A stretch of DNA of 64,000 bases. Origin: a virus. The notes below the pieces were generated by a model that saw only the letters and a list, made by a program, of their open reading frames with translations, had not been told where the DNA came from and did no database searches. The stretch lies in the IMG/VR virus record IMGVR_UViG_3300032315_000748. One strand, given 5' to 3'. This document shows, piece by piece, positions 16,070 through 56,235 of the stretch. The first letter of the stretch is position 1, and the number at the start of each line of letters is the position of its first letter. A program made the translations under genes and the position numbers.

Positions 16070-16264
16070 ATGAAACAAGAAATGACCATCATCTCTTCAT
16101 ATAGTGGATGTACGAAAGAAGATATTATGAATATGCCAGAAGATAAACTACGAGAGGCAGTGATTGCGGCATTTTCAGTTGAATGTCGTAACTTCGCTGA
16201 AAATGATAGTTGGGTGGGTTCATTTCTTCTTCCAGATGAAATCGCAGACGCATTTAGGGGTTAA
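16070..16264 (+). CDS. hypothetical protein (single-gene cassette)
   Basis: 64-aa ORF between near-identical elements 13 and 14. Confidence 0.7.
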   Translation: MKQEMTIISSYSGCTKEDIMNMPEDKLREAVIAAFSVECRNFAENDSWVGSFLLPDEIADAFRG

Positions 16265-16301
16265 TTAGTATAATCTGTCTCACACGAGTCCAATGATACG
16301 G

Positions 16302-16360
16302 TGTGCCAGTGCTACAACTGGCACACTATATCTCCAAACCCCCTCAATCCGTGCTATGAT
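16302..16360 (+). promoter_or_regulatory. palindrome-promoter element copy 14 (inverted spacer)
   Basis: TGTGCCAG-TGCTACAA-CTGGCACA; TATGAT 16355-16360. Confidence 0.85.
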
Positions 16361-17233: not shown

Positions 17234-17434
17234 ATGAACTCCGACAAGCAACGCAATTCTCAAATTGAAGTCTCGGTTGATTATATGAATGGCCAAGTTC
17301 TTCATCTCATTAACAACGATCAAGCAGAAAATGCGAAAGCAATTCTTATGGAATGGGAAGAATTGATTACACGAGAAGATGATGGTGATAATGTTACAGT
17401 CATTTGGATGAAGAATCTAGCAGGGTCTTGCTGA
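17234..17434 (+). CDS. hypothetical protein
   Basis: 66-aa ORF. Confidence 0.65.
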   Translation: MNSDKQRNSQIEVSVDYMNGQVLHLINNDQAENAKAILMEWEELITREDDGDNVTVIWMKNLAGSC

Positions 17435-17448
17435 GTCCAATGATGCGA

Positions 17449-17572: not shown

Positions 17573-17848
17573 ATGCACCCCGACGATTTTTACGGCAACA
17601 GCAATAACAAAAGCAACACCAAAGAACTTCCTTCTGAGATTGATACTTTGGATGATGCGATTGCTTATCTGCAAAAAGCACGGCAGACTATGGGTGGAAA
17701 TACTAAGTTTCGTGTGGTGGATAATAGCTATACGAAGGAATGGGATGAGTATCAGTTTGTTATTGATGTGATACTCACTGGTAATAAGTCTCTGATGGCA
17801 AAGTCTCGTAGTGGTAATAACGAAGACTACGTTCTGTTTGTCTACTAA
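17573..17848 (+). CDS. hypothetical protein
   Basis: Start at MHPDDFYG. Confidence 0.65.
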   Translation: MHPDDFYGNSNNKSNTKELPSEIDTLDDAIAYLQKARQTMGGNTKFRVVDNSYTKEWDEYQFVIDVILTGNKSLMAKSRSGNNEDYVLFVY

Positions 17849-17874
17849 ACTTCTTACTGAGTCCAATGATGTAA

Positions 17875-20654: not shown

Positions 20655-20839
20655 TTACTATGCGTCTCACTTCTAACTATGGTTTCATTCATACCCCTTT
20701 ATTCTATGTTGGATGGAGTCATTGTCAGTCACAAGATGAAGAACAATTTGGTTTTTCTATTGGTAATTTGTATGTTGGAGTATATAATCATAAGTGGTTT
20801 GGTGGTATTTTGAATGAATATGGTGTATTAGATAATTAA
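20651..20839 (+). CDS. hypothetical protein
   Basis: 62-aa ORF, last of early region. Confidence 0.6.
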   Translation: MITMRLTSNYGFIHTPLFYVGWSHCQSQDEEQFGFSIGNLYVGVYNHKWFGGILNEYGVLDN

Positions 20840-20895
20840 ATTAAATGTATTAAAAAACATTATGTGTTGATTTGTTAATGATTTGTTAATTGTAT

Positions 20896-20999
20896 CTTTA
20901 TGTGTTAATGAGTTCTTTTATCTGTTAATGCTTGATTGAACCTTCTACTTTATGTGTTAATGAGTTCTTTTATCTGTTAATGCTTGATTGAACCTTCTA
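20896..20999. repeat. perfect 52-bp tandem duplication within a TGTTAAT-rich tract
   Basis: CTTTATGTGTTAATGAGTTCTTTTATCTGTTAATGCTTGATTGAACCTTCTA x2; TGTTAAT at 20873, 20884, 20903, 20923, 20955, 20975. Confidence 0.95.
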
Positions 21000-21023
21000 C
21001 TTTTTATGGGTCTAAGCCAGATA

Positions 21024-21052
21024 ATTATAACACAAACCATCTAAAAAGTCAA
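21024..21052 (-). promoter_or_regulatory. leftward sigma70 promoter
   Basis: Minus strand TTGACT (21052-21047), 17 bp, TGt-TATAAT (21029-21024). Confidence 0.8.
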
Positions 21053-21058
21053 GTATTT

Positions 21059-21117
21059 CCAGACACTTGAACAACTGGCACAAGGCATCAACATTATATT
21101 CTGGGGTGTGTTATAGT
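21059..21117 (+). promoter_or_regulatory. palindrome-promoter element copy 17 (no downstream ORF)
   Basis: CCAGACAC-TTGAACAA-CTGGCACA 21059-21082; TGt-TATAGT 21109-21117. Confidence 0.7.
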
Positions 21118-21154
21118 ATAAGGGGAACGATTCTCTATAGGGGGAACTGATAGG

Positions 21155-21317
21155 TTTTCCACAGGTTATAAGAAATAGTTTTCCACAGGCAATTTACAAA
21201 TCCCAGTGATTGTAAGGGTTTATGATTTTTACCCTGTGGAAAACTTTTATACTTTTTCCACAGGTTATCATAAAGTTGTGGAAAACTTTTATACTTTTTC
21301 CACAACCCTGTGAAAAA
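21155..21317. promoter_or_regulatory. cluster of 7 DnaA boxes (cyanobacterial-type TTTTCCACA)
   Basis: TTTTCCACA at 21155, 21179, 21254, 21296; TGTGGAAAA at 21235, 21277; TGTGAAAAA at 21309. Confidence 0.8.
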
Positions 21318-21404
21318 CTATCATAAGAACATCTAATTCGTGATATCAAACACTTCGTGTATTCCTATACTATCAGTTATTCTTATAACTTTTCGTCTTT
21401 TACA

Positions 21405-21765
21405 TACCTGGGGATATGTTTCGTGTATTAGAATAAAGCAGTACTAAATGGTTCTTAATAAGCACCACTGTTTGATACTTAACAAACAGTAAAGTATAAT
21501 CAGCATGGATTTCGTCTATTCTATTATACTTTGCAACTTCGTCAATACTATAAAGTATTAGACAGTGCTTCGTGATATATTATAGCTTACTCCTTCGTTT
21601 ATACAGTGAGGATAATGTTCTTAAATATCATATACCTGGGGATATGTTTCGTTTATTAGAATAAAGCAGTACTAAATGGACAGTTATATCGTCGTCTTCG
21701 TTATAGCGTACCTGGGGATATGTTTCGTTTATTAGAATAAAGCAGTACTAAATGGACAGTTATAT
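21405..21765. repeat. three 47-57-bp direct repeats
   Basis: TACCTGGGGATATGTTTCGT(G/T)TATTAGAATAAAGCAGTACTAAATGG at 21405, 21633, 21709. Confidence 0.95.
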
Positions 21766-22014
21766 TGGGGCGGTTTGTGTTATATTATATCCCCGATGCC
21801 CGCCCATAAGGCGTAAACCCCTAAAAGCTAATTTAAAGGGTCCCTGTAACCTACAAAACTTTGAAAACGCTCGAACATATACACGTCAATTAAAAAAAAT
21901 TCCCAGATTTTAAAATTTCCACACAGGTTCGCCCAATGAATAAAAAAATTTCCCAGAAAAAAACACTCACAAAAGGACAAAAACACTATATAAAAAGAAA
22001 CACACATTTCAAAT

Positions 22015-22167
22015 ATGAAACTGGAATTTGACGATTACGAAAAAGATCTATTACTGGAAACAATTCAGCATAGATTATACACAGATAAAATATTAGTGAT
22101 TAATAATACTCTTAGAGAAGAAATTGAAGATCTTCTCAGAAAAGTAGAAGAAGATGAATACTTATAA
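22015..22167 (+). CDS. hypothetical protein (50 aa)
   Basis: MKLEFDDYEKDLLLETIQHRL... Confidence 0.55.
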   Translation: MKLEFDDYEKDLLLETIQHRLYTDKILVINNTLREEIEDLLRKVEEDEYL

Positions 22168-22371: not shown

Positions 22372-23127
22372 ATGGCAAAAGGTTTTACGGTAAAGGCAGC
22401 AGCACCCAAATCTTCAAATAATAATGAAGATGATTTTGATTTAGCATTAGCAAAACAAGCAATACAAGGAAAGTCAATTGTATTTTGTCTTCCTGGACGA
22501 GGAGTATCATATACTTTTTTAAAAAACTTCGTTCAATTGTGTTTTGATCTAGTTCAATCTGGAGCAAGTATTCAGATTTCACAAGATTATAGTTCAATGG
22601 TGAACTTTGCTCGTTGTAAAGTTCTTGGGGCAAATGTTCTCAGAGGACCAAAGCAAGTTCCTTGGGATGGTCGTTTGAAGTATGATTATCAGTTATGGAT
22701 TGATAGTGATATTGTATTTGATACTGAAAAGTTTTATCGTCTTGTTTCGATGGACAAGGACATTGCAGCGGGATGGTATTGTACTGAAGATGGAATGACC
22801 ACCTCAGTTGCTCATTGGTTGGATGAAGATGATTTCAGAGGTAATGGTGGAGTGATGAATCACGAAACCTTAGAAACGATGAGCAAACGTCGCAAGATGT
22901 TTACAGTTGATTACACGGGTTTTGGATGGGTACTTATTAAGAATGGAGTTTTTGAGAATCTTGAATATCCCTGGTTTGCACCGAAGATGCAAGTCTTTGA
23001 ATCTGGTGAGGTTCAGGACATGTGTGGCGAGGATGTCTCATTCTGTCTAGATGCAAAAGAAGCAGGATTTGAGATCTGGTGTGATCCGAAGATTCGTGTT
23101 GGACATGAAAAGACTAGAGTCATCTGA
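22372..23127 (+). CDS. GT-A fold glycosyltransferase-like protein (cyanomyovirus-type)
   Basis: LWIDSDIVF DxD motif, TGFGWVLIK..VFE...PWF, GEDVSFC...GF.IW.DP..RVGHEK. Confidence 0.85.
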   Translation: MAKGFTVKAAAPKSSNNNEDDFDLALAKQAIQGKSIVFCLPGRGVSYTFLKNFVQLCFDLVQSGASIQISQDYSSMVNFARCKVLGANVLRGPKQVPWDGRLKYDYQLWIDSDIVFDTEKFYRLVSMDKDIAAGWYCTEDGMTTSVAHWLDEDDFRGNGGVMNHETLETMSKRRKMFTVDYTGFGWVLIKNGVFENLEYPWFAPKMQVFESGEVQDMCGEDVSFCLDAKEAGFEIWCDPKIRVGHEKTRVI

Positions 23128-23924: not shown

Positions 23925-24326
23925 ATGGCAGTAACAATTTCTCGCAGTTTTAAAGATATTAGTTTGTCTTTTGCGAGACATCCAGTTACAAATGATGTAA
24001 CCATTCTCAAAAATGAGGATGCAATCAAAAGATCTGTCATAAATTTGGTTAGAACTCGTATCAATGAAAGATTTTTTAATGCTTTATTGGGTTCTTCTGT
24101 AGATAATTCATTATTTGAACTCCAATCTTCTGGAATATCTTCATTTTTACAAGAAGAAATCACAACACTTCTCAAAAACTTTGAACCTAGAATTAGATTA
24201 AGAAGTGTTGTGATTGATACTCCAGAAGATTCTAATGATTTAAATATTCGTATTTCTTATGATATTGTTGGTTTACCATTTCCAACTCAAAATATAGAAT
24301 TCATCTTACAACCAACTAGAGTATAA
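23925..24326 (+). CDS. g25: baseplate wedge subunit gp25
   Basis: FKDISLSF..HPVT.D....NEDAIKRSV.NLV.T...ERFF...FEPRI. Confidence 0.92.
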   Translation: MAVTISRSFKDISLSFARHPVTNDVTILKNEDAIKRSVINLVRTRINERFFNALLGSSVDNSLFELQSSGISSFLQEEITTLLKNFEPRIRLRSVVIDTPEDSNDLNIRISYDIVGLPFPTQNIEFILQPTRV

Positions 24327-51702: not shown

Positions 51703-52755
51703 ATGCTAGGAGAATACTATTACCACGAAATAGTCAAAAAAACTATAATTGCATTTGGTACTTTATTTAATAATATTAACATTAAACACAAAAAACAAGA
51801 TGACAGCGATTATAGCACAATAAAAGTTCCTATTGCATATGGTCCAGTAGAGAAGTTTACGGCAAGATTAGAACAAAAACCAGATTTGAGAAATAGGGTT
51901 TCTATCGTTCTTCCAAGATTAGCATTTGAGATGACTAGTATTCAATACGATAATACTAGAAAAGTCTCTACTATGCAAACTTTTAAAGCATTAAGTTCTA
52001 CAGATAATCAGGTAGTAAAAAAAGTTTTTATGCCTGCCCCATATAATATTGGCATTCAACTTTCTATTATGACTCAATATAATGATGATGCTCTGCAAAT
52101 TATTGAGCAAATTCTTCCATATTTCCAACCATCTTTCAATTTAACAATAAATTTGGTTTCCTCTATAGGGGAAAAAAGAGACATTCCTATGATACTTGAA
52201 AATATTAATTTTAAAGATAATTATGATAGTGGTTATGAAGAAAAAAGAATTATAATTTATGATTTAAGTTTTACTGCTAAAACTTATTTGTTTGGTCCCA
52301 TTCCAGACAATACAGAAGGCTTTATCAAAAAAGTCCAGGTAGATTATTATTCTGATACAGAAACCAAAAATGCATCTAGGCAACTTCGTTATGTTGCAGA
52401 ACCAAGAGCAATTAAAGATTATAATTCAGACAATACAACCTCTCTTGCACAAGATGTAGATGATAAAATTACTAAATTTATTGTAAATAATGCAACTTCT
52501 CTTGTAGAAGATACATATATACAAATTGATGACGAAGAAATGTATATTAAATCTATATCTGGAAATACTATTACTGTATTAAGAGGTAGAGATGATTCTT
52601 CAGTAGTTTCACATTTAAATGGTTCGTCTGTAAATATTATTAATGCTGCAGATGATAATTTGATTGAACAAACAGATGATTTTGGGTTTGATGAGTATCG
52701 TTTTGATTATGGTGATGGTAAAATTTATAGTCCGTCTAAAGGTATTGATGTATGA
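51703..52755 (+). CDS. g15: tail sheath stabilizer/completion protein gp15
   Basis: FGTLFNNI, VPIAYGP, LPRLAFE, QIIEQILPYFQP. Confidence 0.93.
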   Translation: MLGEYYYHEIVKKTIIAFGTLFNNINIKHKKQDDSDYSTIKVPIAYGPVEKFTARLEQKPDLRNRVSIVLPRLAFEMTSIQYDNTRKVSTMQTFKALSSTDNQVVKKVFMPAPYNIGIQLSIMTQYNDDALQIIEQILPYFQPSFNLTINLVSSIGEKRDIPMILENINFKDNYDSGYEEKRIIIYDLSFTAKTYLFGPIPDNTEGFIKKVQVDYYSDTETKNASRQLRYVAEPRAIKDYNSDNTTSLAQDVDDKITKFIVNNATSLVEDTYIQIDDEEMYIKSISGNTITVLRGRDDSSVVSHLNGSSVNIINAADDNLIEQTDDFGFDEYRFDYGDGKIYSPSKGIDV

Positions 52756-53174
52756 ATAACAAATTTGACGATATAAATCAAGCATTGGATATAGAAGCAA
52801 CTTCTATAGAAAAAGAAATTGTAAAAAGATCTCCATCAAAATTATCTAGACCAACAGATAAGAATGATTTGGATGCCGATTATGAATATGCAAGAGGGCA
52901 TTATTATGCCCTATTGGAAAAAGGCCAGGAAGCAATTGATAGTATATTAGAACTAGCACAAAGTTCAGAAAAAGCAAGAGATTTTGAAGTCGCTCTTCAA
53001 GGAATTAAAAGTATGGCTGATGTTGCCGATAAACTTATGGACTTACAGCAAAAAAATAAAAAAATAAGAGAAGAAGATAAATCCAACCCAAAGAATGTTA
53101 CGAATGCACTTTTTGTTGGTTCTACTGCAGAGTTACAGAAATTACTCAAGAAAGGAATCATAGATTCTAAATAG
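52752..53174 (+). CDS. g16: terminase small subunit gp16
   Basis: DYEYAR...LLEKGQEAI, NALFVGSTAELQKLLK. Confidence 0.92.
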   Translation: MNNKFDDINQALDIEATSIEKEIVKRSPSKLSRPTDKNDLDADYEYARGHYYALLEKGQEAIDSILELAQSSEKARDFEVALQGIKSMADVADKLMDLQQKNKKIREEDKSNPKNVTNALFVGSTAELQKLLKKGIIDSK

Positions 53175-54537: not shown

Positions 54538-56235
54538 ATGAGTAGTGGTGATCAGTATCTAGGAAATCCTTTACTAAAAAAGGCGAATACGCCAATAGAG
54601 TTTACTAAGGATAATATTGAACAATACATAATATGTAAAGAAGATCCTGTATATTTTGCAAGAAATTATATAAAAATTGTTTCTCTTGATCATGGTCTTG
54701 TGCCATTTGATATGTATAAGTTTCAAGAAAAACTTATCAGTAATTTCCATGATCATAGATTTAATATCTGCAAAATGCCAAGGCAGTCTGGAAAATCCAC
54801 TACTGTAGTTTCCTATTTGCTTCATTACGCAATATTTAATGATAATGTCAATATTGCAATTCTTGCCAATAAAGCGTCTACTGCCAGAGACCTTCTTGGG
54901 AGACTTCAATTAGCATACGAAAATCTCCCCAAATGGATGCAGCAAGGCGTCTTGATATGGAACAAAGGTTCACTAGAACTTGAGAACGGTTCCAAGATTG
55001 TTGCTGCTTCTACTAGTGCATCTGCTGTTCGTGGTGGATCATATAATATTGTATTTTTGGACGAATTTGCGTTCGTTCCAAATAATGTCGCAGAAGAATT
55101 TTTCAGTTCAGTATATCCTGTTATATCATCTGGTAAATCTACCAAGATGATTATTGTTTCTACCCCTCACGGGATGAATCATTTTTATAAAATTTGGCAC
55201 GATGCGGAAAGAAAAAAGAACGAATATATACCAACCGAAGTTCATTGGAGTGACGTTCCCGGTAGGGATGAGGAATGGAAGCGTCAAACAATAGCAAATA
55301 CTAGCGACCAACAATTTGCAGTTGAATTTGAGTGTGAGTTTCTTGGTTCTGTTGGAACTTTAATCAGTGCATCAAAATTGAGAAACTTAGTTTATGACGA
55401 TCCAATAGAAAGAAGTGGAGGATTGGATGTATATGAAGAACCACAAGAAGATCATACTTATATAATGACTGTGGATGTTTCAAGGGGATTAAATAATGAT
55501 TACTCTGCTTTTGTTGTTTTTGATATAACTACGTTTCCATATAGAATAGTTTCAAAATATAGAAATAATGAAATTAAACCTATGCTTTTTCCAAATATTA
55601 TTTTGGACGTAGCAAAAGCATATAATAAAGCATTTGTTTTGGCAGAAGTTAATGATATTGGAGAACAAGTAACAAGTATTTTACATTTTGATTTAGAATA
55701 CGATAATATTCTAATGTGTGCGATGAGAGGTAGAGCTGGACAATTGGTTGGACAAGGATTTTCTGGAAAGAAAACTCAATTGGGCGTTAAAATGTCCAAA
55801 ACAGTAAAAAAAGTTGGTTGCTCTAATTTAAAAACGATTGTAGAAGATGATAAATTAATATTCAATGATTATGATATTATTAGCGAGTTGACAACTTTTA
55901 TCCAAAAAAATCAATCATTTGAAGCTGAAGAAGGATCAAATGATGACTTGGTAATGTGTTTAGTTATCTTTGCTTGGTTGGTTGTCCAGGATTATTTCAA
56001 GGAGATGACTGAAAATGATGTTCGTAAAAGAATATATGAAGACCAAAAAGAACAAATAGAACAAGATATGTCTCCTTTTGGATTCATTACTGATGGTCTA
56101 AATAATGAAAATACTTTTGTTGATACTGAAGGAGATACTTGGAAAGTTATTGGTGGCAATCAAGTTCAAGGTGATGAAAATGGATGGCATCTTGATGAGT
56201 ATGGGGATAGTTCATATATGTGGGAATATAGGTAA
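54538..56235 (+). CDS. g17: terminase large subunit gp17
   Basis: YLGNPLLK, PRQSGKST Walker A, FLDEFAF, STPHGMNHFY, DDLVM. Confidence 0.97.
   Translation: MSSGDQYLGNPLLKKANTPIEFTKDNIEQYIICKEDPVYFARNYIKIVSLDHGLVPFDMYKFQEKLISNFHDHRFNICKMPRQSGKSTTVVSYLLHYAIFNDNVNIAILANKASTARDLLGRLQLAYENLPKWMQQGVLIWNKGSLELENGSKIVAASTSASAVRGGSYNIVFLDEFAFVPNNVAEEFFSSVYPVISSGKSTKMIIVSTPHGMNHFYKIWHDAERKKNEYIPTEVHWSDVPGRDEEWKRQTIANTSDQQFAVEFECEFLGSVGTLISASKLRNLVYDDPIERSGGLDVYEEPQEDHTYIMTVDVSRGLNNDYSAFVVFDITTFPYRIVSKYRNNEIKPMLFPNIILDVAKAYNKAFVLAEVNDIGEQVTSILHFDLEYDNILMCAMRGRAGQLVGQGFSGKKTQLGVKMSKTVKKVGCSNLKTIVEDDKLIFNDYDIISELTTFIQKNQSFEAEEGSNDDLVMCLVIFAWLVVQDYFKEMTENDVRKRIYEDQKEQIEQDMSPFGFITDGLNNENTFVDTEGDTWKVIGGNQVQGDENGWHLDEYGDSSYMWEYR

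Follow-up and report, generated by a model that had tools for sequence, protein, structure and literature searches.

What purpose could be served by two promoters that stand back to back, equally far from an element lying between them, when neither leads to a gene? The question is raised by a locus in viral DNA of 64,000 nt (IMG/VR record IMGVR_UViG_3300032315_000748), the whole of which is called the window here. The -10 boxes of the leftward promoter (P_L) and of the rightward promoter-like site (P_R) both begin 41.5 bp from 21070.5, the centre of the frame 21059-21082. As a preliminary description of this DNA had noted, that spacing is the one found in the early gene cassettes of the window, where the 15 other cassettes measured have 40.5-42.5 bp between dyad centre and -10. 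The same description is borne out in that neither promoter leads to a nearby ORF, none being credible in either direction, and in that the left flank has tandem repeats (two perfect 52-bp copies) and the right flank has DnaA boxes. The features of the locus are as follows.

20824..20863, no strand: AT-rich element with core AAATGTATTAAAAAACAT, a candidate DNA unwinding element
20865..20999, no strand: template of the predicted P_L transcript, with seven oriented TGTT[AG]AT motifs and the two perfect 52-bp tandem repeats
21010..21017, minus strand: start-site box GCTTAGAC, at the 5' end of the predicted P_L transcript; conserved
21024..21052, minus strand: P_L, leftward host-type promoter, TTGACT-17-TGnTATAAT
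21059..21082, no strand: inter-promoter element in an 8-8-8 frame, read as a truncated PeSL-type dyad
21059-21066, no strand: left arm CCAGACAC, degenerate, 4/8 to the family consensus
21067-21074, no strand: spacer TTGAACAA between the arms of this element
21075-21082, no strand: right arm CTGGCACA (the half-site), 8/8 to the family consensus
21088..21117, plus strand: P_R, rightward promoter-like site, TCAACA-18-TGnTATAGT
21155..21317, no strand: DnaA-box array of the TTTTCCACA type, with 6 matches to TT[TA]TCCACA within 21155-21304

The locus and its relatives

The window is assigned to a T4-like cyanomyovirus (Kyanoviridae) on protein similarity, since its large terminase (54538-56235) is 74-77% identical to the terminases of Synechococcus and Prochlorococcus T4-like phages, and its PHROG matches to baseplate, sheath and head-closure proteins are all of T4 type. 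The G+C content is ~30-38%. The promoters lie in the largest gene-free stretch of the window (~20840-22014, without credible genes), which separates a block of small plus-strand early genes from the structural genes; rightward, credible ORFs resume only at 22015. GC skew shows no inflection at this locus and is uninformative.

A nucleotide search with 20800-21900 against cultured phages gave no match, and relatives were for this reason reached through a neighbouring protein and through DNA patterns. The neighbouring gene (22372-23127), used as query, yielded 80 IMG/VR loci. Searching with a DNA pattern that combined three short stretches from the unit gave 52 contigs with one copy each, 2 of the 52 being chance matches. 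The alignment used below (A1) holds 37 sequences, namely 35 distinct metagenomic units and the cultured phages S-SZBM1 and DSL-LC03, which belong to different lineages; DSL-LC02 was read separately. A scan with the AT-rich core was mostly noise and, among the matches listed, added only L163 and L220, whose half-sites are the variants CCTGCACA and GTGGCACA.

The unit of P_L plus start box occurs once per contig, and exactly once in the complete 168-kb genome of DSL-LC02; the pattern is absent from Syn9, S-PM2, P-SSM2 and S-SRM01. By a strict test, P_L with its box is present at ~9 of 46 loci chosen via the neighbouring gene, and the arrangement is therefore lineage-restricted. From its distribution in these sequences, it appears to be a single-copy module confined to a sub-lineage of mostly freshwater and estuarine phages.

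P_L is the conserved member of the pair

On the minus strand, P_L comprises a -35 box TTGACT (21052..21047), a 17-bp spacer and a -10 box TATAAT (21029..21024), with a TGTGn extension upstream of the latter; it matches the sigma70 type at 11/12 positions, and its start is predicted near 21017/21018. Sites of this grade with a TG extension numbered 2, against 0.25 expected from shuffles, and the main support for P_L is its conservation among relatives. Across the 37 sequences of A1, no variation is seen in the -35 bases GTCAA, in the TG extension or in the first two -10 bases, while the sequence of the promoter spacer varies between lineages. The search pattern for the 35 metagenomic units included the P_L -35 block and the half-site; the P_L -10, its TG extension, the CAC of the left arm and every part of both cultured phages lay outside it. 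Invariant blocks amid lineage-diverged spacers are the signature of selection on promoter determinants. The start box is retained in relatives as GC(N)3GCT[TA]AGA[CT].

The position of P_L is likewise stable. Of 39 units, 36 have it at a distance of 41.5-42.5 bp from the frame centre. The other three (L127, L095 and L022) are lengthened by insertions of 9-10, 11 and 20 bp, which correspond to about one or two turns of the helix. In more distant relatives (L006, L017, L005 and DSL-LC02), P_L stands beside DnaA boxes and the half-site is absent. Judged by these comparisons, P_L is probably the old, conserved member of the promoter pair. An NtcA-type match upstream of it (GTG-N8-TAC, minus strand, 21066..21053, centred ~42 bp from the predicted start) is treated as a chance match, because its TAC is private to the window's clade.

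The inter-promoter element is half a cassette dyad

Counting the 21059 element, the window contains 17 copies of the dyad. The other 16 consist of TGTGCCAS, 8 bp and STGGCACA, or near variants, followed 28-30 nt on by TGnTATAAT. Thirteen of these 16 pair at 7-8 of 8 arm positions with predicted energies of -7 to -17 kcal/mol. The element between P_L and P_R had been described as a palindrome, a description that does not fit it: its arms are complementary at 3/8 positions, its left arm departs from the consensus at half of its bases, and the predicted hairpin has -2.3 kcal/mol. The cassette at 2893 has the same pairing defect. An inner symmetry, CACTTGAACAACTG, pairs at 5/7 positions and is private to the window's own clade.

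What the relatives retain is a half-dyad, present in all 37 aligned sequences, with CAC in the left arm and ACTG.CAC in the right arm as invariant columns. Their left arm is conserved as another sequence, CAGACAC, and the 8 bp preceding CTGGCACA read T[TC]NTAGGA, which is the spacer that cassettes normally have (TTGTAGGA class), oriented as for a rightward promoter. The cassette element is directional and points right at 21059, and the idea that the dyad is an orientation-independent site at the DNA level is not supported by this half-dyad, whose spacer and arm in relatives keep the orientation of P_R. That the promoter-proximal arm is kept after loss of the hairpin hints at a role beyond the stem; an arm kept without a hairpin would act through its sequence and not merely through structure. 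The TGGCAC of the arm was also considered as part of a sigma54-type promoter and this was rejected, the required TTGC five bases on being absent from the window, the cassettes and the relatives. To our knowledge, cyanobacteria lack sigma54.

The other cassettes offer little sign that a dyad serves two promoters at once. Among one-sided cassette dyads (n=84), the spacer begins with TTGT toward the promoter in 41 and has the inverted ..CTAC in 0. A lenient scan placed a -10 on both sides of 59 of 146 dyads, and a scored scan found none with a score of at least 6 on both sides. The dyads that repeatedly looked two-sided are accounted for by homologous upstream genes and by the extension GAGTCCAATGAT, which lacks a conserved -10, and were rejected. 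Directional spacers and the lack of scored two-sided dyads mean that there is no evidence here for dyad use in both orientations. The 21059 site accordingly says little on whether the early-cassette dyad acts on DNA or RNA.

Several further observations concern the cassettes themselves. The upstream extension GAGTCCAATGAT(A/G)CG accompanies 31 of 147 dyads in related loci, where it includes the ends of unrelated upstream ORFs, and in the window it is found at 16257-16301, 17404-17448 and 17830-17874. In the dyad at 16302-16325 the common spacer runs the opposite way (TGCTACAA in place of its reverse complement TTGTAGCA), and the promoter is on the usual side. Both the extension and the inverted spacer fit cassette joints made by recombination, as far as their sequences tell. 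In the model phage Syn9 (L249, NC_008296), at ~52995-53060, a dyad TGTGCCAG-N8-GTGTCACA with a downstream TATTCT suggests that the dyad-type early element is found there too.

P_R is variable and probably derived from a cassette

P_R matches the sigma70 type at 9/12 positions; it has a weak -35 (TCAACA), a TGTGn extension as in P_L and a predicted start near 21124. Its -10 begins 29 nt past the right arm, the corresponding distance in cassettes being 28-30 nt. Taken alone, P_R is at chance level, with 16 promoter-like sites found against 16.6 expected. Both sites are confirmed, P_L as a near-consensus promoter and P_R as the weaker of the two.

The relatives differ in this part of the unit. 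Of 39 units, 18 have a -10-like hexamer 27-29 nt past the arm, at 39.5-41.5 bp from the frame centre; in 13/39 the nearest good -10 is displaced to 43-51 nt, and in 8/39 an intrinsic terminator takes the place of P_R. The position of P_R is far less constant than that of P_L, and the exact 41.5/41.5 arrangement is limited to one closely related clade (the window, L125, L116 and L001). The terminator hairpin, GAGACTCA...TGAGTCTC followed by a T run, is conserved, contains GC and lies just right of the half-site; its carriers are L010, L012, L022, L087, L095, L110, L117 and L121. A terminator between half-site and boxes in these eight relatives implies that rightward transcription into the boxes is not essential there.

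DSL-LC02, in which the site lies at ~24200-24290 of the record, has a rightward promoter, TTGCAA-17-TGnTATGAT, and no CTGGCACA half-site. The gap between the -35 boxes of P_L and P_R measures 35 bp in the window, 36 bp in S-SZBM1 and 37 bp in DSL-LC02, and since it is kept with or without the half-site, the back-to-back geometry is independent of the dyad. The equal 41.5-bp spacing is best read as a consequence of this fixed geometry, not of a shared palindromic operator. For the window's lineage, the best reading of P_R is that of the last early (PeSL-type) cassette promoter, whose stem-loop would have been truncated to the spacer and the proximal arm.

The flanks: oriented repeats and AT-rich DNA on the left, DnaA boxes on the right

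Neither predicted transcript contains an ORF of at least 20 codons; the sole minus-strand ORF nearby starts upstream of the predicted P_L start and is not credible for P_L. Rfam (E up to 1) and tRNA scans gave no match. A structured small RNA was considered for P_L and rejected, given a minimum free energy of -5.7 kcal/mol over 150 nt (z +0.39) and a mean z of -0.77 over 12 lineages. The predicted RNA is 51% A and 62% purine, the latter within the top 0.3% of minus-strand windows, and is antisense to no coding sequence over its first 170 nt or more.

The predicted path of this RNA runs for ~155-190 nt through oriented repeats to a conserved AT-rich block. The motif TGTT[AG]AT occurs 7 times in 170 nt here, against 35 times on the plus strand of the whole 64-kb window. 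The two 52-bp copies occupy 20896-20999, and relatives have lineage-specific repeats, variable in number, at the same place; every version leads into the AT-rich block. The AT-rich element, 154-193 nt from the predicted P_L start, is in the top 0.06% of the least stable 40-mers of the window, and its sequence is conserved in IMG/VR relatives and in DSL-LC02, DSL-LC03 and S-SZBM1. It is partly palindromic, and the stop codon that ends the last early gene overlaps with it. These three cultured phages and one IMG/VR group (L086-type) have two DnaA boxes immediately next to the AT-rich block; in the window, the element is ~290 bp from the DnaA array.

The boxes of that array are of the kind found in cyanobacterial origins (PMC4674748). 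The first of them lies ~31 nt past the predicted P_R start and 38 nt past the P_R -10. In 11 relatives with a TTGACA-type P_R (the 'near' class), the first box is 42-45 nt past the arm and covers the predicted P_R start, which would be a repressor-like position. A small palindromic motif, CTATAGGGG(A) (21127-21150), is conserved at a fixed place inside the DnaA-box array, and in relatives a second conserved block, GTAAGGGTTTAT, accompanies it; from their sequences, the two suggest that the architecture of the array is fixed. In Syn9, two perfect DnaA boxes form an inverted pair within the annotated tiny ORF gp86 (~52565-52800) and are followed by an AT-rich stretch and then a perfect TTGACA-17-TATAAT promoter.

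Further repeats and a further promoter-like site lie between the array and the next genes. TTCGT motifs number 11 on the plus strand and 0 on the minus strand in 21320-21765 (background ~1 per kb on either strand), and relatives carry the same oriented TTCGTYATA repeats directly after their DnaA arrays; they look like iterons or a promoter-like class of repeat. A 57-nt repeat beginning TACCTGGGGATATGTTTCGT has three copies (21405-21461, 21633-21689 and 21709-21765), two of them identical and 76 nt apart, with diverged versions in relatives. At 21760-21900, a third promoter-like site has an extended -10, GGTTTGTGTTATA, which is a 13/13 inverted copy of that of P_L. It is followed by ~90 nt of conserved non-coding DNA shared with relatives (CCGATGCCC...CTAAAGCTAA...CCTAACCTACAAA...TTTGAAA), a candidate leader or small RNA with no match in Rfam. 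The genes from 22015 have promoter-like sites of their own, including a late-type TATATAAAAA box just before 22015.

A proposed origin-type control module and its rivals

The explanation that best accommodates these results is that the site is an origin-type control module, similar to oriF/oriG of T4 with host DnaA boxes added, whose rightward promoter is a truncated early cassette. It is put forward tentatively, with a probability of about 0.45. Its core would lie where the early cassette region gives way to the structural genes, with two host-RNA-polymerase promoters back to back. P_L would act like the promoter of T4 oriF or oriG, its transcript opening or priming the DNA at the AT-rich element, and transcription from P_R into the boxes, or DnaA bound on or just after the P_R start, would couple the module to host DnaA. 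P_R itself may be a second, lineage-specific promoter that arose from the last early cassette and is coupled to DnaA. These roles of opener or primer for P_L and of DnaA coupling for P_R are deduced from the arrangement of the DNA. The module is read as an origin because P_L, the unstructured purine-rich RNA, the oriented repeats and the melt-prone block fit the T4 design. Against this reading stand the distance of the AT-rich element, the ~290-bp gap to the array, the eight terminators, the flat GC skew, the restriction to one lineage and the chance-level score of P_R.

The main rival, which we regard as somewhat unlikely, assigns the locus to the control of expression, not of replication. 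P_R would then be the last early promoter, with a long DnaA-gated leader to the genes from 22015, and P_L either an antisense promoter or insulator that collides with early read-through, or one that gives rise to a small RNA, made up of repeated motifs, with a regulatory or decoy function. PeSL stem-loops have been proposed to prevent early transcription from entering late genes (PMC2839356); in this locus that stem-loop is missing, and P_L is directed at the early genes. The replacement of P_R by a true terminator in eight relatives also agrees with such a function, as do the end of the P_L RNA near a conserved U6 tract and the orientation of its repeats, which is expected of protein-binding RNA motifs. 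However, the P_L RNA is unstructured, its repeat content differs wholly between lineages, and no coding sequence is available to it as an antisense target over at least its first 170 nt. The downstream genes, moreover, possess their own promoter-like sites, among them the late-type box before 22015, and the DnaA boxes and the conserved melt-prone element are left unexplained.

A shared factor is improbable. By this account, close to that of the preliminary description, a dimeric protein that recognizes the cassette dyad also binds at 21059, where it activates or represses both promoters and so links early expression to transcription at the origin. The perfect right arm, kept in nearly all relatives despite the missing hairpin, speaks for it, as do the cassette distance of both -10 boxes, the insertions between P_L and the arm in about whole helical turns, and the recurrence of the same dyad sequence across diverged phages including Syn9. 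Yet the left arm matches the consensus at 4/8 positions and is conserved in relatives as something else, the spacer and arm point toward P_R, two-sided promoter use is lacking at other dyads, and no candidate protein is known. P_L has a near-consensus -35 and an extended -10 of its own and therefore needs no activator; relatives that lack the half-site still have P_L, and DSL-LC02 among them keeps the geometry of 35-37 bp; and P_R is replaced by a terminator or displaced in 21/39 units. Of the link to an origin, there thus survive the conserved divergent promoters, the element between them and their aim at origin-like DNA, but not the shared control.

Less probable again is a combination in which the half-site, bound by a factor that reads the cassettes, and host DnaA together form an origin-timing switch, with P_L supplying an R-loop primer and P_R being gated by DnaA. 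If true, early transcription, the status of the host initiator and the start of phage replication would be wired at one 100-bp node. Finally, a chance pairing of two promoter-like matches around a decayed and functionless cassette dyad, in keeping with the absence of enrichment of such matches in this AT-rich region and with the confinement of exact symmetry to one clade, is very improbable, given that 37 sequences with diverged spacers all keep the half-site, the start box and the critical P_L positions unchanged, and that P_L recurs in DSL-LC02.

As far as the accessible literature shows, T4-like cyanophages are still without a mapped replication origin. The sole statement on an origin found there is the prediction that Syn9 has a single theta origin (PMC2984593). 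No paper linking DnaA boxes to cyanophages came up in a full-text search. The module would offer a precise, single-copy origin candidate, composed of one conserved promoter, one conserved melt-prone element and one array of DnaA boxes; the cultured phages DSL-LC02, DSL-LC03 and S-SZBM1 carry it.

Comparison with known systems

The module would be a variant of two known designs, PeSL cassettes and promoter-driven origins. PeSLs are composite cassettes of a stem-loop and an early promoter in T4-type phages, described in RB49/phi1, T4/PST and KVP40/nt-1 (Arbiol et al., 2010, PMC2839356; Comeau et al., 2014, PMC4122927). Their stem-loop works by terminating or attenuating transcription, and the repeated copies are joints for recombination (PMC2839356; PMC4122927). 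The 16 other elements of the window resemble them in having a conserved stem-loop at a fixed distance from an early promoter, between small ORFs of the plastic early region. Unlike PeSLs, the cyanophage cassettes have no TTGACA-type -35, and the same arm sequence occurs in diverged phages. The 21059 element shares the cassette spacer, the right arm and the gap from arm to -10, with a promoter of host sigma70 type (weak -35) at the fixed distance, TGnTATAGT 29 nt past the right arm. It differs in that 3/8 pairs make a stable stem-loop impossible, in that no small gene follows (the next credible ORF being at 22015), and in that a conserved opposing promoter abuts it.

Among phage origins, those of T4 come closest. 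T4 origins are located at the borders of transcription blocks; at oriF(uvsY) and oriG(34), the promoter transcript forms an R-loop and primes leading-strand synthesis, while oriE combines an early promoter with iterons (Kreuzer and Brister, 2010, PMC3016281). The module resembles oriF and oriG in a geneless promoter directed toward an A+T-rich, easily melted element, and oriE in that an early-type promoter is accompanied by repeats, iterons in oriE and oriented repeats in the module. In contrast to oriF and oriG, its promoter is of host type and not MotA-dependent. Its AT-rich element lies at least 154 nt away, whereas minimal T4 origins measure ~100 bp in total, and it includes host DnaA boxes, of which T4 origins have none.

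The likeness to bacterial origins lies on the right-hand side. A cluster of perfect host-type boxes is also found in cyanobacterial oriC, for example that of Cyanothece (PMC4674748). The module differs from oriC in being a locus of a phage that has its own T4-type replisome, so that any dependence on DnaA is putative, and in that the AT-rich element of the window is not adjacent to the main DnaA array. In Escherichia coli, oriC is flanked by the gidA and mioC promoters. The module is similarly arranged, with one promoter directed into the boxes (mioC-like) and one directed away from them (gidA-like), and in many relatives the boxes over the P_R start recall promoters that are repressed by DnaA.
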